From Escherichia phage SR02, in the sequence record OQ870566.1: a stretch of DNA of 64,000 nt. One strand, given 5' to 3'. How positions within the stretch are numbered: position 1 is the stretch's first letter; each line of letters begins with the position of its first letter. Of the stretch, positions 16,433 to 45,491 are shown piece after piece. The notes beneath the pieces are model-generated. The model saw only the letters and a list, made by a program, of their open reading frames with translations. It was not told the DNA's origin and ran no database searches. The translations under genes and the position numbers were made by a program.

Positions 16433-16442
16433 AAGGTTAGTT

Positions 16443-18213: not shown

Positions 18214-18222
18214 GAGGTTATC

Positions 18223-18840: not shown

Positions 18841-19940
18841 CAACTGTAGCGCAAACTTTTGGATATCGAGAAGGTCGTTTAACTGAGGCGCATAGTTCAA
18901 TTGCACTTCAGTGCGGTGTCGGTATTGAACTTGAACTCGAAGGTTCCGATCATATCGAAGCAGATATGTGGGATTGTACAGAGGATGGTTCCCTGCGTAA
19001 TGGTTGTGAAATGGTATGTTCACGACCTTACAACGGACAGGAGTTGTTAGACGCTATCAACAACCTGAGTGAAGCAGTAGCTGAATCGCACGCCGAGGGG
19101 ACTTGGCGTTGCTCTACTCACGTTCATATGGATATGAGGGATGCTGATAGTAATATCCTCAAGAAAACCATTCTCGCTTGGACCTTCTATGAAAAGATGT
19201 TGTTCAAGTGTTCAGGCTATCATCGTTACCGTAGCAACTTCTGCCCTGCGTTTGCAGTGGTACAAGCACAGGTAATGAATGCCTCTGACGCATTTAACTA
19301 CGACGATGAAGAGTTCTTCAACCGTCTGGTTCGTTCATGGGATAAGTATACATCCCTGAACCTTCTGCCACTTGCCCAATACGGTTCGATTGAATTCCGT
19401 ATCAGTGAGCCTAAGTGGAAACGTGGTCAACTTCTCAATCTGGTTAACCGCTTCTTGATGTTGAAGAAGCTGGCTTTAGATAACGCAGAGATGAGCAATG
19501 ATCAGTTTATTGAGCATTTAAATACTGTACGATTTGCCCCAATGCTTCCTTACCTTCCTCTGGATTACAATCTGGACGAATCGGATTTGCATTCAGGGTA
19601 TTGTATGGCCCGTGATGTTTTGTATTGCCGTTCTCATGGAGTAGAGCAGTCTGGTCGTATTCGTTTACGTCGAACCAACTCCAACGGAGAAGTTCTTGTT
19701 GACTTACGTCTTATCTCAGACTTCTACGGATTCCTTGGATATGTACGAGGGAACGCTAACAACTTGTACCAAGAGATTCTGGTTATGCTTCGTACAACTG
19801 ACCTATCTACTGTACGATCTGCACCAGAGCAACGTATCCGTGCTATTTTTGACTTACTGCGTGAGTCAGGTCACAGTGATAGCAATATCACAGGGTACAT
19901 TCCAGATCATCTGGAAAATCAGTTAGAGCAAGCGCTGTAA
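18837..19940 (+). CDS. putative amidoligase (glutamine-synthetase-like COOH-NH2 ligase)
   Basis: GVGIELELEG and CSTHVHMDM motifs. Confidence 0.55.
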   Translation: MTTVAQTFGYREGRLTEAHSSIALQCGVGIELELEGSDHIEADMWDCTEDGSLRNGCEMVCSRPYNGQELLDAINNLSEAVAESHAEGTWRCSTHVHMDMRDADSNILKKTILAWTFYEKMLFKCSGYHRYRSNFCPAFAVVQAQVMNASDAFNYDDEEFFNRLVRSWDKYTSLNLLPLAQYGSIEFRISEPKWKRGQLLNLVNRFLMLKKLALDNAEMSNDQFIEHLNTVRFAPMLPYLPLDYNLDESDLHSGYCMARDVLYCRSHGVEQSGRIRLRRTNSNGEVLVDLRLISDFYGFLGYVRGNANNLYQEILVMLRTTDLSTVRSAPEQRIRAIFDLLRESGHSDSNITGYIPDHLENQLEQAL

Positions 19941-20019
19941 TCAATGGGTGCCTCTGATAAAGGGGCACAATTTAAAGGTTAATTAGATGAAAGGGTTTAC
20001 CCTTCAGGTGGATTAGAAA

Positions 20020-22050
20020 ATTTGTGGCATCGTATTAGCTGGCGGTAATCTGTCAAGCACTGATTTAGATGTATTCAACCAACTCTTTTATGCTGGAGTG
20101 TTCCGAGGACAACATTCCTCTGGTATCTTTGGTCAGCGTAAGAGCACTAAGGAAGTCTTCACCTATAAAGAAGCCCTTCCTTCTTTCGCATTCATCCTTC
20201 AAGATGAGTACAAGAAGCACACCACTGGTGAAACAGCTTACACTGTAGCACCTTCATGGATTGTTGGTCATAGCCGTCATGCAACGAAAGGTGCAGTTAA
20301 CGCCAAGAACGCCCATCCTTTCCAACATGGTAACATCACTCTGGTTCATAACGGAACCTTGATGGACCAAGATCTGTTACCTGACAGCAAAAACTTCGAG
20401 GTAGACAGTGAGAACATCTGCCACTCTATTAACACTATTGGTGCAGCAGAGACTATTCAAAAGCTGGATGGTGCTTTCACCTTAATCTGGCATGATGCTT
20501 CTGACAACCGTCTTCATATCATCCGTAACGAAGAGCGTCCATTCCATCTCGCACGTTGTAACAGAGATTGGTTTGGTGCTTCTGAAGAAGACATGTTGAT
20601 GTGGATTCTGAAGCGTTCTAAGTCTCACAAGAACCGTATTGATGAGCACTTTGAATGTAAAGTTGGTACAGAGTATATCTTTGACATGTCAAACAACAGT
20701 ATGACTCTAGTTGAAGAGGTCGCCCACGAGCTTCCGGTTTTTACGGTAATCAATCGTTGGGGCAATTACTACTCGAACAACTACAGCCAAAGCAATTATC
20801 AAAGTTCCTCAAAAAGCAGTACAAGCAATCCTTACGACACGAAGCCGGGAGTGACAGCGGCAGACGTTCGTCGAAGAAACGCAGTGGTAAGTCAAAACAA
20901 AATCGCAAGCGATCGAAACATTGATATTCGCCGCGATATGACTGTGGAAATCACACCACATGAGTTTATTCCTTATGCAACTGCTGGTGCTGTTCCTTCT
21001 CGTGGTAAGATGATCGGTTATATCTACGATGAGAAGTCTCAAGAGTATATCGAAGGTGATGTTCATAACGTAGACATTAAGGCTTATCAGGATGCCCTGA
21101 AAGACCCTAAAATTGTTTACCGTGGGACAGTATCCTGTATCTCCGAAGTTAATGCTATGGTTCGTTTAGTGATCACAGCAGGTCGTTTTGTTGACCCATC
21201 TCTGGAGAAAAAGGAGCCTGAGTCTACTACTGCTGACTTTGATGATGATATCCCTTTTGATATGAATGATAGTTTCGTCAATAAGAATGGCGTTACTATC
21301 ACTCGTAAATTCTGGGAAGCACACTCTCATGGCGATTGCGGTGGTTGTGACAAACACATTGATTGGAAGGATGCACCTAAAGCAGTCTTCGCATATCAGT
21401 GCTATTGGCACCCTGAATGTCTGGAAGGTTTGACTAAACCTAAAGATGAAGAAGAGGAGGAAACTCCTATTGGTGTTTGTGAAATCTGCGGTGAAGTTAA
21501 AACAGAGAACGAGTTCGATGATGAACTTAGTCGTCTTCGTGGTGAAGATATCTGTAAAGTCTGCGCTGTAGATGTAAAGAAGAAAGTATCTAATGCTACA
21601 ATCAAAGATGGTTATGTCTGGATTAAAGCAACAGATACAACAAACGCCCGTCGTCCTGAATTTGCTTTACGTGTAACTGAAGATATGATTGGTCGTATGA
21701 CTGTATTACCTTCCTCAGCGAAACAGACAGGCATCACTCTGGAGGATGTTGTTGACGCTTATGTTGAGAAACGTAGCAACAGTATTTTTGCAATCTCAAC
21801 TAAGCCAAAAAAGGAGGAACCTGCTGAGAAAGCAGGTGTGTTTCCTGAATCACGAACAGCTCTCCGCAAAACTGTTGTCAGCTTCGACGGAAACCGAAGC
21901 ACTGACTTCACCAAAGCCATGTGGTCAACCCTCGGCTACTGCTCAGAGTGTTTTAAGCAGATTCCGTGGCGCGATGCTGAAAGTTGTACGCTTGGTTCTA
22001 TGAATCAAGTTTATTGTAATTCTCCTAAATGTTCATTGAATAGAGGTTAA
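20020..22050 (+). CDS. class-II (Ntn) glutamine amidotransferase with C-terminal Cys-rich metal-binding region
   Basis: CGIVLAGG...RGQHSSGIFG...GHSRHATKG...NAHPF...VHNGT; catalytic Cys codon at 20023 lies upstream of the first canonical start (GTG 20098); start drawn at ATT 20020 with AGGTGG RBS. Confidence 0.65.
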   Translation: MCGIVLAGGNLSSTDLDVFNQLFYAGVFRGQHSSGIFGQRKSTKEVFTYKEALPSFAFILQDEYKKHTTGETAYTVAPSWIVGHSRHATKGAVNAKNAHPFQHGNITLVHNGTLMDQDLLPDSKNFEVDSENICHSINTIGAAETIQKLDGAFTLIWHDASDNRLHIIRNEERPFHLARCNRDWFGASEEDMLMWILKRSKSHKNRIDEHFECKVGTEYIFDMSNNSMTLVEEVAHELPVFTVINRWGNYYSNNYSQSNYQSSSKSSTSNPYDTKPGVTAADVRRRNAVVSQNKIASDRNIDIRRDMTVEITPHEFIPYATAGAVPSRGKMIGYIYDEKSQEYIEGDVHNVDIKAYQDALKDPKIVYRGTVSCISEVNAMVRLVITAGRFVDPSLEKKEPESTTADFDDDIPFDMNDSFVNKNGVTITRKFWEAHSHGDCGGCDKHIDWKDAPKAVFAYQCYWHPECLEGLTKPKDEEEEETPIGVCEICGEVKTENEFDDELSRLRGEDICKVCAVDVKKKVSNATIKDGYVWIKATDTTNARRPEFALRVTEDMIGRMTVLPSSAKQTGITLEDVVDAYVEKRSNSIFAISTKPKKEEPAEKAGVFPESRTALRKTVVSFDGNRSTDFTKAMWSTLGYCSECFKQIPWRDAESCTLGSMNQVYCNSPKCSLNRG

Positions 22051-22052
22051 GT

Positions 22053-22286
22053 ATGGAAATTCGTAAGATGATGCTGGATAACGTTGTAACTACTCGACGT
22101 ATCCCGATGACGAGCACAGGATGTGATAACCTTCGTGCAATCCAGAAGTGGATGCAAGCTGGTATTGGTCAAGTACTTGAGACACAGGTTGAGGTTCCTT
22201 TCCCAACGGTGATCAATAACGTACTTGCTGATTATGTAAAAATCAAAGGCATTAAGGTAGAACCTCATGTCAAATCTGGTTCCTAA
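22053..22286 (+). CDS. hypothetical small protein
   Basis: ATG 3 nt after the amidotransferase stop. Confidence 0.4.
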   Translation: MEIRKMMLDNVVTTRRIPMTSTGCDNLRAIQKWMQAGIGQVLETQVEVPFPTVINNVLADYVKIKGIKVEPHVKSGS

Positions 22287-22491
22287 GAAACCGAAGATCA
22301 CTCTCCTACAATATTACATAGGAGTTCATATCGAATTAGTAACGGAGCAGCGAAAGCTGTATCCGTTCGCTTTCGGTCTGATTGATGCACCATCCGATGA
22401 AGTAGAGAACGACGCGTTCAACGACTACTTCGAAATTGAAGCTCAGATTCAAAAAACTCGTAACGAAATTCTTAAACTTAAAGGTATCTAA
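22267..22491 (+). CDS. hypothetical small acidic protein
   Basis: Overlapping start. Confidence 0.4.
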   Translation: MSNLVPKKPKITLLQYYIGVHIELVTEQRKLYPFAFGLIDAPSDEVENDAFNDYFEIEAQIQKTRNEILKLKGI

Positions 22492-22493
22492 CA

Positions 22494-23690
22494 ATGACTA
22501 CTCGTATCCGTGTTCTTCCTTATGGCCCTTCTGATTCAGTTCGTGAACTTACTTCTGCAATTAACACTAAGATTCAGGAACTTCGACTAAATGCTAACGT
22601 AATGTCTCTGGTATCAGAAGGCTCTCGTTATCGTTCTCGTGTTGGTGATATTGTTGTCAACTACGGAAACCGTCGATACAACGACTCTTTCTTTGGTGGC
22701 GCAACTGTGTTGAACTCTGTGGTTGCCTTGAACCGAGCGGCTAACAAAGTTGCAGCATTTAACGCACTGCGTTTAGCTGAAGTCAAAACTGTTGAATACA
22801 CCGTCGATCGTGAAGTAGCTCAGAACTGGAACCGGAATGAAATTGTTTATGAACGTGGAACCTTAACTGGTCACTCTGGAGAAGGTATTACTGTTCGTCT
22901 TACGCGAGAAGGTGTTGCGGATGCTCCTCTATACACCAAAGGCATCCAAGGCCCACGTCGTGAATGGCGTGTTCATGTGTTCGAAGGTGTTATCACTTAC
23001 GTTCAGAAGAAGATTCGTCGTAATGGTTATCGTGAACTGGAAAGTTATCGTGAAGATATTCGTAACCATCACACTGGTTGGGTTTATTCTAACTCCTTCA
23101 CTGAAGCGCCTCCTGATCAAGTTCTTATTCAAGCTCACAAAGCTGTATCTGCTCTGGGTTTGAACTTCGGTGCTGTTGACCTGATTAGCAAAGGTACTAA
23201 CGCATGGGTTCTGGAAGTTAATACAGCTCCGGGCCTGACTGGCACAACTCTGGAAACCTACACTCACAACATCGTTGAGTTTGTTAAGAGTTTCTCTGGT
23301 GTTGATCCTGACTACCGCGTTGCTTACGAACTGCCTGTTGAAGAAGTGGAAGAAGAATTTGCTGAATCGGCAGATGACGAAAACTTTGCATTGGCAGCTG
23401 AGCCAGTTGCTGAAGAGTCTTCGGAGCCTGTTCCTGAAACAATGCAAGTTGAAGAACAAGGGTTAGAGATCAACCCGGTAACCCGTCGTAATCTGCGTCG
23501 TGGTTATTATATCGCTAACATCAAGCATCCTGAAAACGGTTCGACTGTAGCAAGTAACGTGATCTTGTTCTTCTGTGGTCGTAACTTCTACCGCTCTGGA
23601 TGGAACGCACCAATTAGTGATCGTCAGCTTGGTCGTGTGTTGCAGATTAATAGCCTTACCCTGAATGATGGCACTGTTGTAAACTACTAA
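22494..23690 (+). CDS. ATP-grasp family ligase (RimK-like) with acidic C-terminal extension
   Basis: ATP-grasp core including WVLEVNTAPGL. Confidence 0.7.
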   Translation: MTTRIRVLPYGPSDSVRELTSAINTKIQELRLNANVMSLVSEGSRYRSRVGDIVVNYGNRRYNDSFFGGATVLNSVVALNRAANKVAAFNALRLAEVKTVEYTVDREVAQNWNRNEIVYERGTLTGHSGEGITVRLTREGVADAPLYTKGIQGPRREWRVHVFEGVITYVQKKIRRNGYRELESYREDIRNHHTGWVYSNSFTEAPPDQVLIQAHKAVSALGLNFGAVDLISKGTNAWVLEVNTAPGLTGTTLETYTHNIVEFVKSFSGVDPDYRVAYELPVEEVEEEFAESADDENFALAAEPVAEESSEPVPETMQVEEQGLEINPVTRRNLRRGYYIANIKHPENGSTVASNVILFFCGRNFYRSGWNAPISDRQLGRVLQINSLTLNDGTVVNY

Positions 23691-23696
23691 GGATAT

Positions 23697-23945
23697 ATGG
23701 ATATGTTTTCATTGGAAGATCTAGTACAAAATGGAATGATGGAACAAAAAGAGCCTCTGATTGTAGGCTCTCGTAAAGAGTTGCGTAAATTGTGTGAGGA
23801 GTGGGGTATTACTAATCAGCGAATGATTGGTAATCAATTCTCTGCAATTGTAACTTTCCTAAAACGTGGTGATAAGTATTCTATGGAATGTGTAGAACGT
23901 ATCATCGCTGAAGCACAACAAGATAAAGGAGTAACATATCTGTGA
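23697..23945 (+). CDS. hypothetical small protein
   Basis: AAGGA RBS. Confidence 0.4.
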   Translation: MDMFSLEDLVQNGMMEQKEPLIVGSRKELRKLCEEWGITNQRMIGNQFSAIVTFLKRGDKYSMECVERIIAEAQQDKGVTYL

Positions 23946-24148
23946 ATAAGTATAAAGTCCTGTTTAAAGATACCAATGCAGCTGGCGAAATGCGAGCAAT
24001 GGATATTGACGCTGAATACTTCCGAAGTGAGCTTGATCAGATAGTATTCTATGAGCGCGGTAGTCGACCTGCTAATGAATCAGAAGTTATTGCTTCATTC
24101 GGTAAAGAAGCAATCTGCGGTGTAATCAAAATCTTTATTACAGAGTAA
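23942..24148 (+). CDS. hypothetical small protein (GTG start)
   Basis: ORF-track only. Confidence 0.3.
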   Translation: MNKYKVLFKDTNAAGEMRAMDIDAEYFRSELDQIVFYERGSRPANESEVIASFGKEAICGVIKIFITE

Positions 24149-24217
24149 TCTGCTCTAGTCTCTTCGAAAGAGGAGGCTAGTTCGGATAAACTAAACAAAC
24201 CAACAAAGGTATAGATA

Positions 24218-24637
24218 ATGTCAGAAGTAATTTACGTAGCAACTTATGGTTCTCTTCGTCGTGGTCAAGCTAACTATCTAGTTAATGACCGAGCTGGTGC
24301 TAAGTCAATTGGTGAAGGTTGGACTGAAGACAACTTTGATCTGTTCCGCTATGGTGGTTCCTACTTCCCAAGCATCTCTCTCGCACACAGCAATAACAAT
24401 AAGCCTGTTCGTGTAGAAGTGTTTGCTACTGACAAAGCAGGTCTGGAAGGTCCATACGATCGTCTGGAAGGTTACAATAAACGTAGCCCTGAAGATAGCT
24501 TCTATCAACGAACTCAGATTGCCGTTAAGCTGGACTCAGGTGAAACTGTTATCGCTTGGATTTATCACATTGACGAAGAACAAGATGTTCTGGTTGAATC
24601 TGGCGACTGGTCAGAGTATCTGAAAAGTGAATCTTGA
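24218..24637 (+). CDS. AIG2/gamma-glutamyl cyclotransferase-like protein
   Basis: ATYGSLRRG and LDRLEGY motifs. Confidence 0.55.
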   Translation: MSEVIYVATYGSLRRGQANYLVNDRAGAKSIGEGWTEDNFDLFRYGGSYFPSISLAHSNNNKPVRVEVFATDKAGLEGPYDRLEGYNKRSPEDSFYQRTQIAVKLDSGETVIAWIYHIDEEQDVLVESGDWSEYLKSES

Positions 24638-24856: not shown

Positions 24857-26647
24857 ATGTCAAAGATCATTTTGGGAGACACAGGTTGTAAGGAATGTAT
24901 CTCTCATGGTCGTGATAAAACCCACAACCACATGATTCTCTTCCGTAACGAAGAGACAGGTGAGGAGTGGGGAAGTTGTAACCGTTGTGGGAATTACGAA
25001 GTGTTCGAAAAGGGCACTACACCTACTCCAAACGAGAAGAAAGAGTTGTCCCCTGAAGAGTTAAGAGAAGTCTTAGATGATTGCTTAGAGCTTCCTCAGG
25101 GTGAACTCACTCGACGTTTAATCCCTAAAGCCGTATCAGAGCGTTTTGAGTGTCGCATTGGTCTAAGTCAGACTGATGGTCAGACTCCAGACAGCTACTT
25201 CTTTCCTCGTGAACGTGATGGAAACATTGTCGGTTATGAGGTTAAGCTGCTTGACAGTAAGAAGTTCTATTACGTTGGCAGTGTGAAAGAAGCAGATTTA
25301 TTTGGTATGGCACAGGCTCAGCGTGGTGATGTGTACAACAAGAAGCTCTTCATTTTTGAAGACCCGCTATCTTGTATGTCTGGTTTCCATGTCCTTACAG
25401 CTTTTACAAATGCAACAAACATTAAACCAGCATGTGTTTCTTTACCGTTCGGTGCAGGTTCAATCTCTTCTGTGTTGTCTCGTAATCGAGACTTCGTAAA
25501 TGGTTTTGAGGAGGTTGTGCTCTGCATGGACAACGATGATGCAGGTGAGATAGCTTTAACAAAAGGTCGTTCTTTATTCCCTCATGTTAAATTTGCTCGT
25601 ATCCCTAAAGGAACTTTCCCATACAACGGTGTGGAGAAAGAGATTAAGGATGCGAATGACATGCTTCTGTCTGGTCGTGGTCAAGAGTTATTCAACATTC
25701 TCAAGTACTCAGCAAAGCGGGAATCTCCTGCTGGAGCTGTAACAATCTTTGATTGCCTTGATGATGCTCTGAAGAAAGCGGAGTGGGGTATCCCATATCC
25801 GTGGAAGACTCTGAATGAGATGACCTTCGGTATTCGATGGGGAGAGGTGGTAGCAATCGGTGGTGGTGTAGGTAGTGGTAAAACATTAATTGCTCACGAA
25901 CTTGTTGCTCATCTGTGCTTAGAGCATGGTTTTAATGGAGGTGGCTTCTTCTTGGAAGAGAAGGTAGGCATGTCTGTTAAGAATATCGCTGGTAAGTCAG
26001 CATCAATCCCTTTCCACCGACCTGATGTTGAATATGACGAGGAGGATTTGCGTAATGAAGCACTTCGTTATGCAGACAAATTCTTCTTGTATGACAACTT
26101 CGGGCAGAATGAATGGGAAGACATTAAACAGTGTATCCGTTTCTGGGTAGTTGAAAACCAGTGTAAGTTCATCATCCTTGATAACATTACCGCTCTGGTA
26201 TCTCATTTAACACCTTCAGAAATTAACACCGAAATTAGTAAGATTGCTTCCGAGCTTGCTGGTATGTGTAAAGAGTTAGACTTTACCGCTTTCGTACTAT
26301 CTCACCTTAATGCTCCGGCAGGTGGTGCTCCTCACGAAGAAGGTGGACAGGTACGTGAAGTCCAGTTCACTGGCTCTCGTTCTCTTATGCGTTGGTGTCA
26401 GTGTATCATTGGCTTTGAGCGTGACAAGCAAGCTGATGGCTTAGCTAAGAACCTCTCAGTCATTCGATTACTGAAAGAACGTAATTACGGTCAGACGGGT
26501 GTCTGCTATACTAAGTATATCAGTGAAACCGGTAGACTTGTAGAAAGGGAAGACTTTGAAGTTGATGAAGATAATCCATTCGTTTTAACTAACGGAGAGG
26601 ATGCAGCTTCTCTCGTCAACCAAGCAGATGGAGCTTCACCGTGGTAA
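24857..26647 (+). CDS. DNA primase/helicase (T7 gp4-like)
   Basis: N-terminal Zn finger CKEC...CNRC, TOPRIM-like region, Walker [10 protein letters not shown]. Confidence 0.85.
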
Positions 26648-27195
26648 AGAAAAAGAAAGTGTTTGCATTCGATATCGAGAGTAATGCACTGTACGATGAC
26701 ATAACTAAAGTGTGGTGTATTTACATCTTCGATGTTGAAACTGGTGAAAGGTGGGGCTATCGGCCTCACCAAATTGAAGATGGGATTCGTAAACTTACAG
26801 AAGCTGATGTGCTCGTAGGTCATAATATTATTGACTTCGACCTTTGTGCTCTGAAGAAGATGTATCCCAATCTGATCGACTATCGTTTTAACGTCTTTGA
26901 CACTTTATGTCTTAGTCGATATCTTAAACCTGACCGTATTGGTGACAGTCCTGAGTATCCGAAAGGCGACCCTAGACATGGCCCAAGAGGTCATGGCTTG
27001 AAGCAATGGGGTGAGTTCTTAGAGGAACTTAAAGGTGACTACGGTGAGCAAGAGGAAGCATGGGATGCTTTCACTGAGGATATGTTTACTTATTGTGAAC
27101 AGGACGTTAACTTAACTGTTAAGGTTTATCTTTTCTTGTGTGAACTCACGGGATTTGACCCTTACGACCCACCTTCATTATATTGGAAAATGTAA
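26641..27195 (+). CDS. DNA polymerase 3'-5' exonuclease domain protein (split family A polymerase, N-terminal part)
   Basis: FDIESN, HNIIDFD, YCEQDV exo motifs aligned by eye to T7 polymerase residues 1-190. Confidence 0.8.
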
Positions 27196-28504: not shown

Positions 28505-29059
28505 ATGAGTTTACTAGGAAGCCCAGAGTTACATAAACTAATTGATGATGGTGTTATTGATGCACCACACTCAGCTGTTAACTCCTCCAGCATTGACGTC
28601 CGTATTGGAGATCGTGTTCTGATGGAAGGTGCAGCTAATGGGGTTGTTGATATCTCTGCTAAAGAATCTCCTAACTTCAACGAGGTTATGATTCCAGAGG
28701 AAGGGTTGGTGATCAAACCGGGTGAGTGTTTCTTGGCTCATACAGTGGAGACATTCAATCTTCCAGACAACATTAGCTGTGACTTCATGCTACGATCTAC
28801 TGTCGGTCGTTGCTTCTTAGAGCACATGCACGCTGGTCATGCAGATGGCGGTTGGCATGGCAGTCAGTTAACTATGGAATTCAAGAATGTCCTACAACAT
28901 CACTCTCTTCTGATCAAGCCGGGGATGCGTATTGGTCAAATGGAGTTCTTTAAACACTCCTCATCCGAAGAGGACAGTTACGCAACGAAAGGTTCATATA
29001 ATAACCAACAAGGGCCGACAAAAGCTTTTGGTGGAACAAACCATGCTGATATGCTATGA
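28505..29059 (+). CDS. dCTP deaminase/dUTPase-family protein
   Basis: SSIDVRIG, RSTVGR, ADGGWHGSQLTMEF motifs. Confidence 0.65.
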   Translation: MSLLGSPELHKLIDDGVIDAPHSAVNSSSIDVRIGDRVLMEGAANGVVDISAKESPNFNEVMIPEEGLVIKPGECFLAHTVETFNLPDNISCDFMLRSTVGRCFLEHMHAGHADGGWHGSQLTMEFKNVLQHHSLLIKPGMRIGQMEFFKHSSSEEDSYATKGSYNNQQGPTKAFGGTNHADML

Positions 29060-29552
29060 TGAAGTAGTTGACCTCTTTAATATAGACATGTCAGCACCTT
29101 CAGGGCTTTCTTGGAAAAGGAAGCCTAGTAAGTTTGCTAATGATATAGTAGGTAAACCTGCTGGTAAGCTCACAAAAGATGGATATTATCAAATTCCCTT
29201 AGGAGGAGTTCGTGTCCATAATCATAGGATTCTTTTTGTTCTTTATACTGGTGAGGATTTATCGGATGAATATCAAATAGATCATGCTGACGGTAATAGA
29301 GAAAACCTAGAAGAAACTAACCTGAGAAAATGCTCTCACTCTGAGAATAGTCAGAATGCTAAGACAAGGGTTGATAACAAACTAGGAATCAAGAATGTCT
29401 ACCGAGAGAAAGGTGGAACGTTCTGTGTATCTGTTCAAAAAGACGGTAAACGTGAGTCTGTATATGGGGTGAAAACTCTTGAAGAGGCTAAGATTTTGGC
29501 TAAGTCTATGAGAAGTAGACTTCATCTCTCCTTTAATGTGGATGAAAGATAA
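29043..29552 (+). CDS. HNH homing endonuclease with C-terminal AP2-like DNA-binding domain
   Basis: YQIDHADGNRENLEE...HSEN HNH motif; AP2-like VYREKGGTFCVSV. Confidence 0.7.
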   Translation: MLICYDEVVDLFNIDMSAPSGLSWKRKPSKFANDIVGKPAGKLTKDGYYQIPLGGVRVHNHRILFVLYTGEDLSDEYQIDHADGNRENLEETNLRKCSHSENSQNAKTRVDNKLGIKNVYREKGGTFCVSVQKDGKRESVYGVKTLEEAKILAKSMRSRLHLSFNVDER

Positions 29553-30028: not shown

Positions 30029-30358
30029 ATGTTAGATTTGAGTAAAGTGGCCCCGCCCACTGAAGAGATTACAAAATCCAAGGTGATGCAACAGTTTTAT
30101 CATCGTGATATGCTTGGTCGCTTTATCAAGAATCGTGATGTTGTTGCTTGGTCTATCGGTAATCAGGGATATCTGTTGAAGGTTCTTCAGGTCACAGGTT
30201 CAACTGCTAAGCGAGTTAAGGTGTATGACCCTGAAATGGGGCGTTCTAAGTCAGTAGACCCACAGAACTGCATCGTAATTACCCAGCAGGTAATGGATAA
30301 CATTGCACGTAACGTTGCTAACTCAGTTGAACTTGATGGAGAAAACCCAAATGCATAA
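30029..30358 (+). CDS. hypothetical protein
   Basis: GGAGAG RBS; preceded by AAATGTATA motif. Confidence 0.5.
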   Translation: MLDLSKVAPPTEEITKSKVMQQFYHRDMLGRFIKNRDVVAWSIGNQGYLLKVLQVTGSTAKRVKVYDPEMGRSKSVDPQNCIVITQQVMDNIARNVANSVELDGENPNA

Positions 30359-30914
30359 GAATGTCTTTGATTTACCTGAGATTGGTCGTGTCGACTACAA
30401 TATGTTAGACCGGTCTGAGCTTTCAATCTCTCGCCTTGAAACAATGCAAGGCATGATTAGTGGAAACAGCCTAGAACACATCCTGAGCTGCTTACAAGCT
30501 AACATGGAACTCTTGCATATCAAAGCTAAAAACTACCACTGGAACGTCTCTGGTGCAGGATTTCAGGGTGTTCATGGTATGTTTGATGAGCTTGAAGATT
30601 ACGCACGACAAGTAGGAGATCGTATTGCTGAACGTATGCGTTACCACTGTGTTAAAGTGGATGCTACAGCAGCCAATTATCTTTCTCATGCTTGGTTCTC
30701 AGAGGGTAATGCTGACCTAGACATGGACGGTATGCTCTCTGATATGTGCATGACCTTGATGTGTATTATTGAGAAGATGGATGAGTTTGATGGTGATTTA
30801 GCCACTTATCCAGTTGATCAGAGTATGCTTCAAGAAATTAATGAAGGTCTTGGCAAGTATTGCTACTTCGTCAAGAGCAACATGTCCCACTCAAGTGGTG
30901 ATGTGTCTTATTAA
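30351..30914 (+). CDS. Dps/ferritin-like protein
   Basis: KNYHWNVSGAGFQGVHGMFDELEDYARQVGDRIAERM matches Dps ferroxidase-site region. Confidence 0.6.
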   Translation: MHKNVFDLPEIGRVDYNMLDRSELSISRLETMQGMISGNSLEHILSCLQANMELLHIKAKNYHWNVSGAGFQGVHGMFDELEDYARQVGDRIAERMRYHCVKVDATAANYLSHAWFSEGNADLDMDGMLSDMCMTLMCIIEKMDEFDGDLATYPVDQSMLQEINEGLGKYCYFVKSNMSHSSGDVSY

Positions 30915-30975: not shown

Positions 30976-31155
30976 ATGTTATCAGCAATCGTATGGGGTA
31001 TTTGGGCTATCTTTATTGGTGGTGGTATCTATTGGGCTTCTGGCAAGCTTATTGAAGAAACTCCTGACAAGAAAGGTGAGATTCAAACAGCATCAACCAT
31101 CATGGTTATCGTAGCTGTTGTTATCCCATTCCTGCTTCACCTCCTGACTGCATAA
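30976..31155 (+). CDS. 59-aa two-TM membrane protein
   Basis: AAGGA RBS; two hydrophobic segments. Confidence 0.4.
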   Translation: MLSAIVWGIWAIFIGGGIYWASGKLIEETPDKKGEIQTASTIMVIVAVVIPFLLHLLTA

Positions 31156-31164
31156 GGTTCTTAA

Positions 31165-31365
31165 ATGAAAAAATGGTCCGTAGTTTGTGTTGACCCTTCA
31201 GGTGCTATTCTATGGGACTTGACTGGTGATACAAGGAAAGAGATGCGTATTCTTAAAAAGATGCTCAAAGAAGATAACCCTCAAGGGGATGTTTTTCATT
31301 TAGTAAAAACAGAAATGTCCAAAAGTGGGAAGGTCCAACCTGACTTGAGTAAAATTTACTATTAA
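31165..31365 (+). CDS. small protein (paralog group)
   Basis: MKKWSVV...KIYY. Confidence 0.4.
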   Translation: MKKWSVVCVDPSGAILWDLTGDTRKEMRILKKMLKEDNPQGDVFHLVKTEMSKSGKVQPDLSKIYY

Positions 31366-31373
31366 GGAACCGA

Positions 31374-31649
31374 ATGTCTAAAGTAATTAAGTTTTATAGT
31401 GATCAGTGCGCTCCATGTAAAGCAATGGCTCCTACCTTTGAGAAGGTTGTTAAGGAGTTCGATGTAGAAGTGGAAGAGATTAACATCCTTGAAGGTGATG
31501 GTCGTGAACAAGCTGTTAAGTATGGTGTACGAAGCATCCCTGCTTTTGTTGTACCTGACCGTAACAGTGGTGCACACTACAGCCTCTCCGGTATGCAGAC
31601 TGAAGCAAACCTGAAAGCATTTTTGGACACAGCCCTGAGAAATAAGTAA
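31374..31649 (+). CDS. thioredoxin-family protein
   Basis: CAPC active-site motif followed by KAMAP. Confidence 0.7.
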   Translation: MSKVIKFYSDQCAPCKAMAPTFEKVVKEFDVEVEEINILEGDGREQAVKYGVRSIPAFVVPDRNSGAHYSLSGMQTEANLKAFLDTALRNK

Positions 31650-31664
31650 TAAGGATATTCACGG

Positions 31665-32321
31665 ATGAATGAACAACTACAAGCAACATTAATCGAAGCT
31701 ATGGGAAGTGATCGTAGCGTAGTAAACGCAGCTCGAGTTTCCTTTGGCGTAACCCGTGAAGGTGATTTAAATGAACGTGATGAACGTCTCATCAACTTCC
31801 TCGCAAGAGAGAAGCATGTCACGCCTTTCAGGCACCCGCAAGTCAGTTTCCGATGCAAAGCACCTATCGCAATTGCGAGACAGTTGGGCAAGCATCAGGT
31901 TGGATTCTCGTGGAACGAAATGTCCCGGCGGTATAAAGATGGAGCAGTTGAAGTCTTCATCCCTAAAGAGATTTTTGCGAGACCTTCGGACCTCCATGCA
32001 GGTTCAGGGATTCAACTCATCGACGGAGAGCGAGCTGAAGCATTAATGCTGATTAACGATGCATATGAAGCTTCTCTAGCAGCATATGACAAGTTGATTG
32101 AATTTATTGCACCAGAGCAAGCTCGATTTGTTCTTCCTCAGGGGATGATCACTGAGTGGGTATGGACTGGTTCTTTATATGGCTGGTTTGAGTTATGTCG
32201 TCAGCGACTCTCCTCTCACGCTCAATATGAAGTTCGAGTGTTTGCTAAATCTCTGGATGAAGAGATGGCTAAACTTTACCCAATCTCATGGGCAGCTCTG
32301 AAGAAAACTTTGGAGAATTAA
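31665..32321 (+). CDS. thyX: ThyX-like flavin-dependent thymidylate synthase with divergent signature
   Basis: AARVSFG...HVTPFRHPQVSF...SWNEMSRRY; canonical RHR replaced by KHQ. Confidence 0.65.
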   Translation: MNEQLQATLIEAMGSDRSVVNAARVSFGVTREGDLNERDERLINFLAREKHVTPFRHPQVSFRCKAPIAIARQLGKHQVGFSWNEMSRRYKDGAVEVFIPKEIFARPSDLHAGSGIQLIDGERAEALMLINDAYEASLAAYDKLIEFIAPEQARFVLPQGMITEWVWTGSLYGWFELCRQRLSSHAQYEVRVFAKSLDEEMAKLYPISWAALKKTLEN

Positions 32322-32455
32322 TGTTGGAAGAAGATGACGATGTGTTCTGCACCAAGTGTGGGATGACAGTTGATGATGCATATGACCCAAGTGTAGAAAT
32401 TTGCCCTTGTTGTGGAGTATGTGAATATTGCTGTTCCCATAACTCAGAGGATTAG
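32321..32455 (+). CDS. 44-aa Cys-rich peptide
   Basis: TAATG coupling; CTKCG, CPCCGVCEYCC. Confidence 0.35.
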   Translation: MLEEDDDVFCTKCGMTVDDAYDPSVEICPCCGVCEYCCSHNSED

Positions 32456-32509
32456 CAGGAATTTCTGATGAAAATAAAACATATTACAGATATTCAGGAA
32501 GCATTCTAA

Positions 32510-32701
32510 ATGCCTCCTCGAAGAGAGAAGGATAAGATTAAAAAGCTTATTCAAGTTTATGGTCATACATCTAAAGATGATATAGACTATATGCCTTCTA
32601 CTTTCGTAGAATGTGGGATTGCTAGCGGTTTCACATTCGACCATAAAGTGTTTCAGCAATTCGTTGACCACTGGAGAAAAGATGGAAAAGAAGATCTGTA
32701 G
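32510..32701 (+). CDS. hypothetical small protein
   Basis: ORF-track. Confidence 0.4.
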   Translation: MPPRREKDKIKKLIQVYGHTSKDDIDYMPSTFVECGIASGFTFDHKVFQQFVDHWRKDGKEDL

Positions 32702-32867
32702 CTTCTGTAAGAAAGAGAAGCCTATCGCCAACTTTAAGCCCAATCCTGTGACTGGTCTGAATCATGTGATGTGTCACTCTTGTAGGATATATCTTGAAAC
32801 AAAGCACACCATTAACAGGTTGCACTATTATCACCCAACAACATTCAAATTTAAGGTTGTGAAATGA
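32682..32867 (+). CDS. small zinc-finger-like protein
   Basis: CSFCKK...CHSC. Confidence 0.4.
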   Translation: MEKKICSFCKKEKPIANFKPNPVTGLNHVMCHSCRIYLETKHTINRLHYYHPTTFKFKVVK

Positions 32868-33187
32868 TTGACAGTAATACATTTAGGACTTCAAATGGAA
32901 GTGAAATAAGTCCTGCTGAAGTAATTAATCGGCATAGAAGGCAATTGATCATCCATTCCTATTTGTATTACTGGTTGGATGACCCTATCTGGTCTGATGA
33001 TAAATGGCAACAAGTTGCTAATGATTTGGTTGAGTTGCAAGCCTTATATCCAGAGCCTACCGGAGTCTTTGACAATGAGTTCAAAGATTGGGATGGTTCT
33101 ACAGGAATGCACCTCCCACATAACGAAGCTGTTGCTTGTATGGCGACAGCTGTTTACAGACTTCATAAAGGGGTTAACTTCGCATGA
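32864..33187 (+). CDS. hypothetical protein
   Basis: Overlap coupling. Confidence 0.45.
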   Translation: MIDSNTFRTSNGSEISPAEVINRHRRQLIIHSYLYYWLDDPIWSDDKWQQVANDLVELQALYPEPTGVFDNEFKDWDGSTGMHLPHNEAVACMATAVYRLHKGVNFA

Positions 33188-33384: not shown

Positions 33385-33566
33385 AGTGCTCTAAATGTGA
33401 AGGAACAAACCTTCATTTAAGTAACAAGGTTATCAGAGAGCTTGCCAAAGGCTCTCCAACCAAAGGGAAGAACAAACGATTTACTAATGTCAGGGTTTAT
33501 ACAGCAATCTGTAAAGACTGCTTAACTACTGAGTGTCATTACGAAGAAATTGGAGAGCGTAAATGA
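33369..33566 (+). CDS. small zinc-ribbon protein
   Basis: CSKCEG...CKDC. Confidence 0.4.
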   Translation: MDIVVKCSKCEGTNLHLSNKVIRELAKGSPTKGKNKRFTNVRVYTAICKDCLTTECHYEEIGERK

Positions 33567-34300
33567 GTCGTCGTCAATCACGGAAAGAATCACGGAAAGA
33601 TCTTCGTCGGGAAGCACTTGTTACTCGTAAGGGTAAGCGAGAGTATGAAGAGGTGGTTTTAGCAAAGCCTGTAGTCCCTCAGAACCAGTTTCAGTCTGAG
33701 CTACTCAATGCTATTAAGACTAAACAAGTTGTGTTCACAGACGCTCCTGCGGGCTGTGGTAAGACCTTTGTAATCACTTCCACAGTTATTGATGCACTGA
33801 AGAGTGGTAAGATTCAGAAGATCATTCTGAGTCGCCCTTCGGTAGGCATGGGTAATTCTCTTGGGTTACTTCCGGGAGGAATGCGTGAGAAGTTTGAACC
33901 ATACCTGATGCCTATCATTGATGTTATTACTCAGCGATACGGTAAGGGATTCTATGAATGCCAAATCGGAAATGGTAACATTGAGTTTGTACCTCTGGAA
34001 TATCTCCGTGGTCGTTCTTTCAATGATGCTATTGTTATTGTTGATGAGTTCCAGAACACAACTAAAGATGAAGCCTTCTCCATCATGACTCGATTGGGAG
34101 AAACCTCTCAGCTGTTCTGTATGGGTGATACAAACCAGCATGATATGCGTGGTCGTGAGAGTGGTCTTACTTGGGCTACTAACTTTATTGATGAACACGA
34201 TCTGTATGAGTTCGCTGAGATTGTAGATGGTGAATCAGATGATATTGTTCGTTCTGGTTTCTGTAAGGCGATTGTTAAAGCAATGGAAAAGAAAGCTTAA
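33563..34300 (+). CDS. phoH: PhoH-like ATPase
   Basis: Walker A APAGCGKTF and IVDEFQNTT. Confidence 0.8.
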   Translation: MSRRQSRKESRKDLRREALVTRKGKREYEEVVLAKPVVPQNQFQSELLNAIKTKQVVFTDAPAGCGKTFVITSTVIDALKSGKIQKIILSRPSVGMGNSLGLLPGGMREKFEPYLMPIIDVITQRYGKGFYECQIGNGNIEFVPLEYLRGRSFNDAIVIVDEFQNTTKDEAFSIMTRLGETSQLFCMGDTNQHDMRGRESGLTWATNFIDEHDLYEFAEIVDGESDDIVRSGFCKAIVKAMEKKA

Positions 34301-34356: not shown

Positions 34357-34674
34357 ATGGCAGACCATGTAGGAAAGAGAGATTATGCACAAGAAAGACG
34401 TACCGCAATTGCCCGTGGTGAAACAGGCGTTGGGAGCAAGAGCGGAGATGCTCAGCGCCACCGTGCACGTCGCATCGTTGAAAAGCGCGATGGAAAAGCT
34501 GCTGTCAGAGGTAAAGATGTTGGACACAAACGAGCTGTCAAGTCTGGAGGCTCTAATGCGTCAAGCAACTTACGTGTTGAATCAGTCAGCTCAAACCGTT
34601 CAAACGGCGGCAAAAGTGGTGATCGAGCTGGAAAAGCAAACGGAGCTAGGAAGGGGGCGTTGAGTGGTTCTTGA
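34357..34674 (+). CDS. basic Gly/Ser/Arg-rich hypothetical protein (frame ambiguous; overlapping +1 frame ORF 34385-34663)
   Basis: Strong AAGGAG RBS 36 nt after TAATGTATA motif; the alternative frame encodes a more helical protein. Confidence 0.35.
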   Translation: MADHVGKRDYAQERRTAIARGETGVGSKSGDAQRHRARRIVEKRDGKAAVRGKDVGHKRAVKSGGSNASSNLRVESVSSNRSNGGKSGDRAGKANGARKGALSGS

Positions 34675-35014
34675 TGACACCCTATCTTATGATGCGGTCA
34701 CAGGTAACCTATACTACACAAAATCTCCAAGCAAAGGAGTGATGTGGAACAAAAGCCATCCCGGAAAGATAGCTGGATGTAGGATATCGAAAGGCTATAT
34801 CGGTGTGTATTTCCAAGGAAGACAATGGAGAGCGCACCGGCTTATAGCTACACACTTTATACCAAACCCTAACAATTATCCAGAAGTCAACCACATAAAT
34901 GGGGTAAAAGACGATAATCGACTGGAGAATCTTGAATGGGTATCCGCTTCTGAAAACATACAACACTCCTTTGATACAGGGTTGAATAAAGGACATATTC
35001 GTGACAATAACTGA
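34664..35014 (+). CDS. HNH homing endonuclease (GTG start), separated by an in-frame TGA from a downstream HTH ORF
   Basis: HRLIATHF...VNHINGVKDDNRLENLEWVSASEN; by eye, collinear with the HNH at 29043. Confidence 0.6.
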   Translation: MVLDDTLSYDAVTGNLYYTKSPSKGVMWNKSHPGKIAGCRISKGYIGVYFQGRQWRAHRLIATHFIPNPNNYPEVNHINGVKDDNRLENLEWVSASENIQHSFDTGLNKGHIRDNN

Positions 35015-36661: not shown

Positions 36662-38506
36662 GTGAGCAACCCGGACGCTCTCCCATTTTTGACAGAGATG
36701 ACTGTCGCTGATATAATCTCTAAGCAAGCAAAGCACGGAGTGAGTTTCAACCGAAGAAATGCTCGGTGGTATGTTCACCTCCTTAAAGAGATTATTGTTA
36801 ATATTGACAGAGAGTTGATTCCTCTCTTACCTAAGATGAGATTAGATGGCTCTACTTATATGAAGCCATTTAAGAAGTCTGGAGCTTTACAGAAGTGGCC
36901 CCAAGCCTATTGCGATAGGGTTGGCCTTAAGAGAGAAGACATTGGTGGAGCATTCACCTGTGTCGAATACGTAGACTTTGACCCATCGAAAGATGCACGA
37001 GTTAAAGAAGCCCTTATGGACGAGGGTTTTCTTCCTCCAGAGTTTAATGTATCAAAGAAACCTTGGAATACTTTTGAAATCAAGAAAGATATGAAAAAGT
37101 ATGGAACATACCAAGCGTGGTATTCAGCTTGGATGCGAGGTAATGCTAAGCAGAAGCAGACAGCCGAGATGGTTGACGCTGATATTAGGAAGTTCTTAGA
37201 AAAGCATTTTAGGTTTAAAACTAAGAACTACATGAAGGCTTATGTATTTGGTTTAGGTTTAAACCCTAACCGACGTAGACCTATCACTTTTGATGAGATT
37301 AAGATAGCACTAGCTACCTCAAACAAGTGGCCTACAGCTCCTACAAACCTCGAAGAGACTCTTGAAGAAGGGTTAGGGGGTGAGCTAGGGAGTGTCGGAA
37401 GTTTGCTTAAGAGACGCGTTGTAGCGGCTCACAGGTTAGGTCTTATTAGTGGACTCATAGCAAAGGAGCGCGAAGATGGTAAACTTTCGGCAGAAGCTAA
37501 CAGCTGTGCTACGCCGACTTTTCGATTCAAACATCGTATCGTGGTTAATATTCCCTCCCGTGGTTTGTTTGGTCACGAGTGTCGCAGTTTGTTTGAATCT
37601 GACTATAACTCAGATGATGATCACTCTCGTCCTTTCGTTATTACTAACGTTGTTCCTGATGGTTGTTATATACGAAAAGGTACTAACGTAATTTATGAGA
37701 AAGGTAAGCCGGGGAAGAAAGACAAACCTGTAGGTGCTTACAAATATTACATACCCGCTGGTAAAGAAGTATTCTTAGGGTATGATGGTTCTGGATTAGA
37801 ATTGCGTATGCTCGCACACTACCTCATTAAAGAGTGTAGGGACATGCTTGCTGAAGCAATAGAAGAGAATAACCCAGCTAAGAAAGCTCTGGCAGAACGT
37901 GGTTTAGCTTCTGCTATTATGTATCGTGATATTCTCCTTGAAGGTGATATCCACTCCCACAACCAGAAACTTGCTGGTCTTCCTACTCGCGACAACGCTA
38001 AGACGTTTATCTACGCATTCAACTATGGTGCTGGTGATGCTAAGCTTGGTTCAATTGTAGGTGGTGGGGCTGACGAAGGTTCAGTGATGCGAGCACGTTT
38101 CTTGGCAGAGAACCCATGTATTGCAATCCTCATTGATCGTATGACAGAGAAAGCTGCTCAAGGATACTTGATTGGTGTTGATGGTCGTAAGATTACAATG
38201 AGACGGGATGCCACTGGTAAGGTTATGGTTCATAAAGCACTTAACACTCTCCTGCAATGTGCTGGTGCTGTTGTTATGAAATATGCTATGATGTTCCTTA
38301 ACAAGTGGATTGAGAAAGATAAGGTTCGTTGTGCTAAGGTAATTGATATGCATGATGAAGGTCAATTCTCAGTGAACCGTAATGATGTACAGAAGCTAAA
38401 AGAGCACACCGAGCTTTGTGTTAAGAAGGCTGGTGAGTACTTGAAGATGGAATGCCCTCTGGCTTCTGATTGTCAGATTGGACTTAACTGGATGCACACA
38501 CACTAA
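36662..38506 (+). CDS. DNA polymerase, family A polymerase domain (C-terminal part of split T7-like polymerase)
   Basis: DGSGLELRMLAH, RDNAKTFIYAFNYGAGDAKLG, KALNTLLQCAG, DMHDEGQF motifs. Confidence 0.9.
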   Translation: MSNPDALPFLTEMTVADIISKQAKHGVSFNRRNARWYVHLLKEIIVNIDRELIPLLPKMRLDGSTYMKPFKKSGALQKWPQAYCDRVGLKREDIGGAFTCVEYVDFDPSKDARVKEALMDEGFLPPEFNVSKKPWNTFEIKKDMKKYGTYQAWYSAWMRGNAKQKQTAEMVDADIRKFLEKHFRFKTKNYMKAYVFGLGLNPNRRRPITFDEIKIALATSNKWPTAPTNLEETLEEGLGGELGSVGSLLKRRVVAAHRLGLISGLIAKEREDGKLSAEANSCATPTFRFKHRIVVNIPSRGLFGHECRSLFESDYNSDDDHSRPFVITNVVPDGCYIRKGTNVIYEKGKPGKKDKPVGAYKYYIPAGKEVFLGYDGSGLELRMLAHYLIKECRDMLAEAIEENNPAKKALAERGLASAIMYRDILLEGDIHSHNQKLAGLPTRDNAKTFIYAFNYGAGDAKLGSIVGGGADEGSVMRARFLAENPCIAILIDRMTEKAAQGYLIGVDGRKITMRRDATGKVMVHKALNTLLQCAGAVVMKYAMMFLNKWIEKDKVRCAKVIDMHDEGQFSVNRNDVQKLKEHTELCVKKAGEYLKMECPLASDCQIGLNWMHTH

Positions 38507-42960: not shown

Positions 42961-43104
42961 GTGTAGGGTTGATCTACCTTTTTTAGGGAGTGCTCAAGGA
43001 AAGGCACTAGCCACTACGTTGGAGTGGTATCAGGACCAGTACACAGAATGTGCTGCTAATCACAATGGATTGTTAGAAGCCCTTAAAGAGCGTGGAATAG
43101 AGTG

Positions 43105-43105
<1 letters not shown>
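42845..43105 (+). CDS. o-spanin-like lipoprotein (overlapped gene in +1 frame)
   Basis: Signal peptide with lipobox MSA-C. Confidence 0.4.
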
Positions 43106-44597
<1,492 letters not shown>

Positions 44598-44601
<4 letters not shown>

Positions 44602-45491
44602 ATGAAGAGGTAAAAGCTTTAAAGAAAGCTCTTGCAATTAAAATCAAACATTTAAATTTCGTCAGAGATGAGTTGGAGGAGCTATCCAACTTATCAGGAT
44701 ATGAGTTACAGAATGAGCTTGTAGAGTTTCAAATCAATATTGATGGCGGTAAATACGTAGAAACAACTAGAGCGATTTTACCTAAAGTTACTGGTAACAA
44801 AACTCCTCCAATAGACTACTCACATGACCACATGGAGCAATTAGAAATGGAATCTCAAGGCAATCCAGCACTGACCAATATGGTGGGAGGTTCTCACTAT
44901 AAGCCTTTAGTAGTAATTCTTAATGGGCCTCCGGGTTGTGGTAAAGATACGATAGCCAATGCTTGGGTCAATGCACATTCATACCATCACAATCATTTAA
45001 CCAAATCCTTCAAGGAGCCGATGTATAGAGTGGCTGCTGCTGCACTAGGAATGCCTCTAGAAAACTTCCTAGCACGCTATGAAGATCGTGAATGGAAAGA
45101 AAAATCTAGACCAGAGTGGGGAGGGAAGTCTGTAAGAGATTTGATGATTTCTACAAGTGAAGACTTCTTAAAACCTATGTTTGGCAACAATCATATGGGG
45201 AATCTCGCTGTAAAGAGCATCAAACAAGAGGAGTTAGGTCAGGATGACATTATTGTTTTTACTGACGGAGGTTTTGATGCAGAGGTACGAGAACTAGAAA
45301 AGAATTTCAATGTCCAAGTTGTCCAAGTGCTTAGGGATGGTTGTTCTTTCGATGGAGACTCTCGCTCGTACATTGAAGGGGAGCAGAGAAAAACATATCT
45401 GCTGTTTAATGACTCAACTATTGAATCAGCAGTGTCAGATTTAGATTGGATTATATCTCAAGCTCAGGATGATATTTATGGAAGACGTTAA
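44598..45491 (+). CDS. P-loop kinase (dNMP kinase-like) with N-terminal coiled-coil extension
   Basis: Walker A NGPPGCGKDT. Confidence 0.55.

Follow-up and report, generated by a model that had tools for sequence, protein, structure and literature searches.

Escherichia phage SR02 encodes a flavin-dependent thymidylate synthase (ThyX) in which the Arg-His-Arg (RHR) triad that marks the family reads Lys-His-Gln (KHQ). We analysed this thyX gene in a 64,000-nucleotide (nt) stretch of sequence record OQ870566.1, hereafter the window. Because the motif is kept in close homologues and in more distant representatives of the same subclass, KHQ is a class trait of a large ThyX branch found mostly in viruses and not a lesion of the phage gene. 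Based on sequence comparison, the gene most likely specifies a working ThyX that makes plain deoxythymidine monophosphate (dTMP) with a remodelled flavin-phosphate pocket. A preliminary description of the window had proposed that the enzyme might have altered specificity or be non-catalytic. That proposal is disfavoured by the retention of residues that bind deoxyuridine monophosphate (dUMP), by a ratio of nonsynonymous to synonymous substitution rates (dN/dS) of 0.06-0.16, and by the occurrence of the same form of the enzyme beside a bacterial pyr operon.

The thyX open reading frame (ORF) begins with ATG, with AAGGA ~10 nt upstream, and its 218-amino-acid (aa) product contains AARVSF, HVTPFRHPQVSF and SWNEMSRRY. 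The Pfam family Thy1 (PF02511) matched residues 8-206 over profile positions 1-190 of 191 with a score of 149 bits (E = 1.8e-43), relative to a gathering score of 24.8 bits, and the NCBIfam equivalog TIGR02170 (thyX) scored 128.2 bits against a curated cutoff of 87.9. Thy1 was the sole Pfam match of the product, from which the Thymidylat_synt domain of the classical ThyA family was absent. An AlphaFold2 monomer built from a 45-sequence alignment had a mean predicted local distance difference test score of 95.4 (~91 over the motif region), and the top 50 Foldseek matches in the PDB were all Thermotoga maritima ThyX, with template modelling (TM) scores of 0.78-0.82. By three independent measures (Pfam, NCBIfam and predicted fold), the product is a member of the ThyX family. 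The ThyX match had previously been placed in the N-terminal half; the match itself stood, but its restriction to that half did not, since Thy1 covers residues 8-206. It shares 99.5% amino-acid identity with a protein of phage VTCCBPA_211 annotated as 'flavin-dependent thymidylate synthase' (Kuravirus records). Positions 31000-33000 share 95-98.6% nt identity with SU10, MN05, SGF2, NJ01 and the BASEL phages Bas90 and Bas91, all Kuravirus/Gordonclarkvirinae podophages of E. coli and Shigella, in whose records the same gene is labelled thymidylate synthase or ThyX.

HMMER searches matched the solved ThyX structures of Thermus thermophilus (6j61; E = 3e-31) and T. maritima (1kq4; E = 8e-25). HMMER and MAFFT agreed in aligning A71-R72-Q73-L74-G75-K76-H77-Q78 without gaps to A73-R74-Q75-W76-F77-R78-H79-R80 of the T. 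maritima enzyme (Tm; native numbering, equal to chain numbering minus 12). A one-residue insertion follows the triad, where V79-G80-F81 faces Tm I81-A82. As a result, eight residues separate the triad from the serine (K76-H77-Q78-X8-S87); later work reportedly allows X7-8 at this point. Compared to the published ThyX signature, RHRX7S (PMC2826268), the phage product keeps the His and the Ser, carries Lys for the first Arg and Gln for the third, and has X8 in place of X7. A check of the full 218-aa protein found no RHR anywhere, and an RHR in another register was ruled out by the ungapped stretch from ARQ to the triad in both alignments. The replacement of RHR by KHQ, and the retention of the SxNxxSxRY part as SWNEMSRRY in the ORF translation, had both been noted in the preliminary description and are borne out; alignment with characterised ThyX enzymes, set beforehand as a check, located no canonical RHR elsewhere, so KHQ stands.

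To place the variant in the family, we ran HMMER without filters against 1.84 billion cluster representatives and obtained 6,912 matches at E <= 0.001, of which 347 reached E <= 1e-30; residue tallies refer to the best 150 of these 50%-identity representatives, which are 39-63% identical to the query. The first triad position was Lys in 119 and Arg in 30, the second was His in 132 and Ser in 16, and the third was variable (Q 85, T 19, K 16, then V, H and others). Of 153 aligned sequences, made up of the 150 representatives plus the query and two reference ThyX, 139 had the insertion glycine, and an arginine preceded the conserved Arg-Tyr, at the position of R88, in 142 of 150. Overall, every close homologue showed the subclass features, as did ~95% of these nearest representatives. 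Among the 120 closest homologues in a 5.8-billion-protein collection, which extend down to 54% identity, 115 carried KHQxG[F/H]SWNExS[R/M]RY, and a homologue of the query was present in 1,211 phage records. Alignment thus delineates a subclass with three linked features: K/R-H-x in the triad, the one-residue insertion, and SRRY for SGRY. Its signature reads (K/R)-H-x-x-G-phi-x-W-(N/S)-E-x-S-R-R-Y, as opposed to the canonical R-H-R-x-x-S-x-N-E-x-S-G-R-Y.

The same linkage was apparent outside this set. SRRY went with K[HY]x in each of the four phage enzymes of this type that we inspected (Pectobacterium phage phiTE, with KHQ; an N4-like phage of Klebsiella, with KHK; Streptomyces phage Angela, with KYT; and a phage of Bacillus, with KYL), while SGRY was found in every RHR-type ThyX examined (T. 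maritima, T. thermophilus, I3, PaMx25, Sujidade and Fazel). The cellular ThyX of Petrotogaceae combines RHR with the insertion and SRRY, and is an intermediate form between the RHR and KHx/SRRY types. The KHQ-type motif also occurs in phages very different from Kuravirus, some of which have ordinary ribonucleotide reductase (RNR) modules. We did not find the KHx/SRRY subclass described in the searchable literature, which left out some early ThyX-motif papers. The textbook RHRX7S pattern does not cover this large ThyX branch, which is mostly viral, and motif filters such as those in PMC2826268 could drop subclass sequences if the substitutions score as dissimilar. The linkage of RHR with SGRY, and of K/R-H-x with SRRY, poses a structure-function question about the flavin-phosphate pocket that bears on the design of ThyX inhibitors.

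In characterised enzymes, RHR serves mainly to hydrogen-bond flavin adenine dinucleotide (FAD) at its AMP phosphate, its ribityl chain and its flavin mononucleotide (FMN) phosphate; the first Arg alone reaches the isoalloxazine as well and takes part in holding dUMP (PMC6514825). Besides that first Arg, the residues that hold dUMP are two other arginines, both the Ser and the Arg of S-x-R-Y, and the lid Tyr (PMC6514825). The preliminary statement that the triad contacts the nucleotide substrate therefore holds for the first Arg, which touches dUMP, but not for RHR as a whole, which mainly binds FAD phosphates and ribityl (PMC6514825). In the phage product the first Arg is replaced by K76, a conservative change that retains the charge. 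The Tm dUMP-binding and catalytic residues H53, R74, Q75, E86, S88, R90, Y91, R147 and R174 are all kept, as H51, R72, Q73, E85, S87, R89, Y90, R154 and R181, respectively. Conservation of these positions across the 150 representatives was 89-100% (Tm numbering: R147 and R174, 150 each; S88, 149; R90, Y91 and E86, 148 each; H53, 145; Q75, 142; R74, 133). The class-specific changes, in the same numbering, are R78 to K, R80 to variable residues, R165 to Y/A/L and N163 to S. Since all the other dUMP and catalytic positions match T. maritima, the subclass changes lie where the pocket binds the flavin phosphates and not on its uracil side. Position R165 and its neighbours vary among canonical ThyX as well, T. 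thermophilus having His there. With the third triad position variable and the arginine of SRRY near-invariant, the alignment further suggests that an arginine has been relocated, the third triad Arg having been lost and a new one gained in SRRY.

Members of the subclass also reside in cellular chromosomes. A homologue 47% identical to the query, with the motif ARQLGKHQVGLAWNEVSRRY (KHQ/SRRY), lies in the complete 1.79-Mb Spirochaetia chromosome OZ251568.1 (locus L006, 5980-6636). On one side it is flanked by genes for 2-oxoacid dehydrogenase E2/E3, citrate synthase and two reductases, and on the other by those for dihydroorotate dehydrogenase, an orotidine monophosphate decarboxylase/phosphoribosyltransferase fusion and aspartate carbamoyltransferase (pyrD-pyrF/E-pyrB); no phage genes were found around this locus. 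A second KHQ/SRRY ThyX, a 66%-identical orthologue on a diverged 186-kb contig of Spirochaetia type (L025, 7001-7657), shows the same gene order with dihydroorotase (pyrC) in addition. Such synteny beside a pyrimidine operon is what would be expected of a housekeeping thymidylate synthase. The nearest relatives of the Spirochaetia ThyX otherwise lie on phage-sized contigs, and 120 of 120 have SRRY with KHQ or KHT; since its closest relatives are on such contigs, these data suggest that the gene was captured from a phage. A description of the subclass as virus-restricted was dropped once the Spirochaetia copies were found. The underlying scan covered one genome per bacterial or archaeal species with two narrow KHQ-type peptides drawn from 10 close sequences, and the seven loci that it returned are no measure of how rare the subclass is in cells.

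We next consider function. Nei-Gojobori dN/dS values for the window thyX compared with its orthologues in Bas91, LAMP and ECBP2 were 0.06-0.16; the gene is under purifying selection within Gordonclarkvirinae, and a pseudogene was rejected on these values. By analogy with the family, the enzyme would bind flavin as a homotetramer and NAD(P)H would reduce the bound flavin; the carbon of methylene-tetrahydrofolate would then reach dUMP by way of flavin N5 and be attached at C5, after which hydride transfer from the reduced flavin would finish dTMP. The altered part of the enzyme would be its clamp on the flavin phosphates, in which Lys76 would stand in for the first Arg by keeping its charge. Given the variability of the third triad position, the subclass may be able to do without an Arg there, and Arg88 of SRRY together with the Gly-containing insertion would probably supply the missing positive charge.

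Several points weigh against this view of the phage enzyme. KHQ departs from the signature at two of three residues, and flavin binding by the KHQ protein is a prediction. Tm R165, an FAD-phosphate ligand, corresponds to Y172 in the query. The compensating role assigned to R88 is likewise read from the alignment. No purified, assayed or thyA-complementing KHx/SRRY member was found in the searchable literature, and the Spirochaetia genome may hold a second thymidylate synthase elsewhere. Finally, Gordonclarkvirinae show marked resistance to restriction-modification systems although no modification pathway is known in them (PMC11990801), which allows for some unrecognised nucleotide chemistry.

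A refinement of the working-ThyX explanation, not exclusive of it, is that the synthase is active but departs from canonical ThyX in its use of flavin, with FAD bound more weakly or anchored differently, or with FMN in its place; this could alter kinetics or sensitivity to inhibitors. The clustering of changes on the FAD-phosphate clamp (R78 to K, R80 variable, R165 to Y/A/L; PMC6514825) and the new near-invariant Arg in SRRY are consistent with this idea. It is countered by the variability of the R165 region in canonical enzymes, including the T. thermophilus His, and its basis is a comparison of sequences; we treat it as tentative and somewhat unlikely.

The genes around thyX (Table 1) bear on what its product might supply. 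The phage dCTP deaminase is likely the supplier of dUTP/dUMP. Its best solved relative is the M. tuberculosis enzyme 2qxx, which we take to be a bifunctional dCTP deaminase-dUTPase, and the aligned Ser, Asp and Glu are retained. The P-loop ORF possibly carries out the step from dTMP to dTDP. Phage dCTP deaminase, ThyX and the deoxynucleoside monophosphate kinase would together convert deoxycytidine nucleotides to dTTP for the AT-richer phage genome, with host Dut joining the shunt if the deaminase is not bifunctional. E. coli has ~51% guanine plus cytosine (GC). The window has 40-45% and the phage ~42%, and a dCTP to dU(T/M)P to dTMP shunt fits a 42% GC genome that encodes a dCTP deaminase. 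The preliminary description took the deaminase and thioredoxin neighbours to imply a pathway other than plain dTMP synthesis; these neighbours fit ordinary dTMP supply, although the unexplained restriction resistance leaves some room for that suggestion. No other thymidylate synthase, ThyA-type included, is annotated in the related phage Bas91. Related gene groupings occur elsewhere: a Salmonella phage 7-11-like locus groups DCD, PhoH, thioredoxin, ThyX and ferritin, with the ferritin-domain gene directly downstream of thyX, and the association of a ferritin-like gene with thyX is conserved. On an Aeromonas-phage-like contig, a KHQ-type ThyX adjoins NT5C, class I RNR, glutaredoxin and NrdD, and another subclass member adjoins an RNR beta subunit.

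Table 1. Features of the window discussed in the text (positions in the 64,000-nt stretch).
Feature	Position	Strand	Basis or remark
thyX, 218-aa flavin-dependent thymidylate synthase, KHx/SRRY subclass	31665..32321	+	ORF, Pfam, NCBIfam, AlphaFold2/Foldseek
Variant ThyX signature, A71-RQLG-K76-H77-Q78-VGF-SWNEM-S87-R88-R89-Y90	31875..31934	+	alignment to Tm A73..Y91
K76-H77-Q78 (AAG CAT CAG), at the positions of canonical R-H-R	31890..31898	+	ungapped HMMER and MAFFT alignments
R88, in place of Tm Gly89 (SRRY vs SGRY); candidate compensating arginine	31926..31928	+	alignment
tRNA-Arg(TCT)	10049-10124	+	sole Rfam or ARAGORN match in the window
Three ORFs without Pfam match	15233-16432, 16443-17414, 18223-18840	+	phiEco32-type cluster
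COOH-NH2 ligase	17407-18213	+	phiEco32-type cluster (15233-24637), upstream of primase-helicase
Amidoligase_2	18837-19940	+	phiEco32-type cluster
Class-II glutamine amidotransferase	20098-22050	+	phiEco32-type cluster
ATP-grasp-like protein	22494-23690	+	phiEco32-type cluster
GGACT	24218-24637	+	phiEco32-type cluster
Primase-helicase	24857-26647		replication/nucleotide module
3'-5' exonuclease	26641-27195		replication/nucleotide module
Nucleotidyltransferase, 451 aa	27140-28495	+	weak PolyA_pol head domain; phrog_12715 E = 6e-239
dCTP deaminase	28505..29059	+	Pfam DCD 110 bits; TIGR02274 100.3 bits vs cutoff 92.8
HNH_3 homing-endonuclease ORF	28932-29552	+	overlaps 3' end of dCTP deaminase gene
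Dps/ferritin-like protein	30303-30914	+	near thyX
Thioredoxin	31374..31649	+	directly upstream of thyX; Pfam Thioredoxin 50.6 bits, CAPC motif
Small Cys-rich ORF (CTKCG...CPCCGVCEYCC)	32288-32455, or from ATG 32321	+	overlaps thyX stop (TAATG)
Stand-alone Nlig-Ia domain, 107 aa	32864-33187	+	without ligase catalytic domain
PhoH	33563-34300		replication/nucleotide module
HNH_3 homing-endonuclease ORF	34664-35014	+	
Family A DNA polymerase	36662-38506		replication/nucleotide module
Macro-domain protein	43102-43545	+	flanks phage sigma-factor-like gene
SLOG (YAcAr) domain protein	44209-44601	+	flanks phage sigma-factor-like gene
P-loop ORF	44592..45491	+	Bas91 counterpart labelled deoxynucleoside monophosphate kinase; weak AAA_18 match; start codon uncertain

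A second alternative invokes altered chemistry or substrate: the enzyme would make a non-canonical pyrimidine nucleotide, such as 5-hydroxymethyl-dUMP (5-hmdUMP) by water capture of the exocyclic methylene, or would act on dCMP or UMP, and its product would feed an undetected DNA modification that explains the restriction resistance of Gordonclarkvirinae. Apart from the departure of the signature from canonical form, this idea draws on work whose authors suspect modification at the nucleotide level, flag the phage nucleotidyltransferase as a possible link to it, and speculate about deoxyuridine-containing DNA on account of the dCTP deaminase and that nucleotidyltransferase (PMC11990801). Moreover, acid treatment traps 5-hmdUMP as an intermediate in the ThyX reaction (PMC3498832), which makes such a product chemically conceivable. 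Amidoligase, amidotransferase, ATP-grasp and GGACT-type domains, which form a cluster just upstream of the replication genes in the window, have been noted on thymidine-hypermodification contigs (PMC8989533). The window also contains sites for EcoRI (9), EcoRV (27), EcoKI (9) and EcoP1 (89), and with EcoRI and EcoRV sites present the experimental restriction resistance stays unexplained.

Weighed against these points, the residues for uracil and the dUMP phosphate are kept and the changes map to flavin-phosphate ligands, with no acidic replacement of the uracil-binding arginines as a switch to cytosine would predict. The same motif is moreover found in unrelated phages with ordinary RNR modules and beside the bacterial pyr operon. 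Hypermodification of thymidine through 5-hydroxymethyldeoxyuridine (5-hmdU) needs a dUMP hydroxymethylase, a 5-hmdU DNA kinase and an aGPT-Pplase (PMC8989533). None of these domains, nor a classical ThyA, was detected in the 37 window ORFs scanned with Pfam, small ORFs and three larger ones with no match being left unassigned, and the annotation of Bas91 lists no 5-hmdU kinase, aGPT-Pplase or ThyA. Restriction sites are also depleted: 14 six-base palindromes are absent from the window (CTGCAG, 0 vs 9.9 expected; GAGCTC, 0 vs 12.0), and ATCGAT (2 vs 10.9 expected), GATC (150 vs 299) and CCWGG (~9 sites vs ~83 over the whole window) are scarce. Strong avoidance of palindromes, T-containing ones among them, suggests that the phage DNA is exposed to restriction, and so restrictable, in nature. 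No Kuravirus DNA composition or restriction digest was found in the literature searched. We regard altered chemistry as very improbable. That the KHx/SRRY subclass, or at least its Gordonclarkvirinae members, releases another C5-modified deoxyuridylate, e.g. 5-hmdUMP, and thereby accounts for the resistance is a very improbable claim; if true, 5-hmdUMP would be incorporated, perhaps to be further decorated by the amidoligase/amidotransferase/ATP-grasp cluster, and a modified DNA base would then, for the first time, have a flavin-dependent origin. A conserved thymidylate synthase under selection also argues against wholesale replacement of T by U, and thus counts against the published idea of deoxyuridine replacing thymidine in Kuravirus-type phages.

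A non-catalytic, ThyX-like pseudoenzyme or regulator that has lost cofactor binding would account for the change of two RHR residues and the Tm R165 equivalent, all canonical FAD-phosphate ligands, but it is the least probable reading given the low dN/dS, the near-invariance of catalytic and dUMP residues down to ~40% identity (H51, equivalent to Tm H53, being conserved), the confidently predicted ThyX fold and the housekeeping chromosomal context of the subclass in Spirochaetia.

The working ThyX that we favour can be compared with several known systems. With canonical ThyX (T. maritima TM0449, 1O26/1KQ4; T. thermophilus 6J61) the query shares the fold (TM score of 0.81 to T. maritima), a length of ~220 aa, 32-34% identity over the full length and the same dUMP and catalytic residues; it differs in KHQ, the insertion (X8 not X7), SRRY, and the changes of Tm R165 to Tyr and N163 to Ser. 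The RHR-type phage enzymes (I3/Bxz1 type, Sujidade, Fazel and PaMx25) are likewise phage-encoded, located in replication/nucleotide modules and annotated as ThyX-like, but RHR and SGRY are retained in them, and their identity to the query is only 27-32%. PDB entries 4P5A/4P5B, named 'Thymidylate synthase ThyX' by their depositors, are presumably PolB, the UMP/dUMP C5-methylase of polyoxin biosynthesis. PolB provides a precedent within the family for a changed substrate preference, and its specificity is credited to extra loops and to tyrosines that recognise the ribose 2'-OH. The query, in contrast, is a minimal-length ThyX, and its match to 4P5A (E = 1.4e-16) was much weaker than those to bona fide ThyX (3e-31 and ~1e-24). 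The ThyA-family dUMP/dCMP hydroxymethylases of SPO1, T4 and thymidine-hypermodifying phages also act on C5 of pyrimidine deoxynucleotides (PMC8989533). Their fold is unrelated and their mechanism is thiol-based and flavin-independent; the query had no match to that family. Chlorovirus PBCV-1 ThyX (2CFA/4FZB), which presumably keeps RHR, is virus-encoded like the query and matched it distantly (E = 1.7e-7). PBCV-1 ThyX serves to boost dTMP for a virus whose AT content exceeds that of its host (PMC10142491), and the same argument would make a dCTP-to-dTMP shunt sensible in an AT-richer phage.

Other features of the region were also recorded. Both HNH_3 ORFs are missing at the corresponding place in Bas91 and for that reason look like recent insertions into the nucleotide module. 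The small Cys-rich ORF that overlaps the thyX stop has no Pfam match and is labelled 'membrane protein' in Bas91; it bears more resemblance to a zinc-ribbon peptide. Nlig-Ia is the N-terminal NAD+-binding domain of NAD-dependent ligases, and relatives of the stand-alone copy are labelled 'DNA ligase' or 'NAD+ diphosphatase'.

Two metagenomic homologues of the phage ThyX, P0122 (480 aa) and P0135 (352 aa), contain inteins with HNH-like sequence that interrupt the ThyX signature, with KHQxGF on one side and SWNExS on the other. Inteins tend toward functionally critical sites, and this placement speaks for a working enzyme. The long homologues P0187, P0224 and P0225 may carry further inteins.

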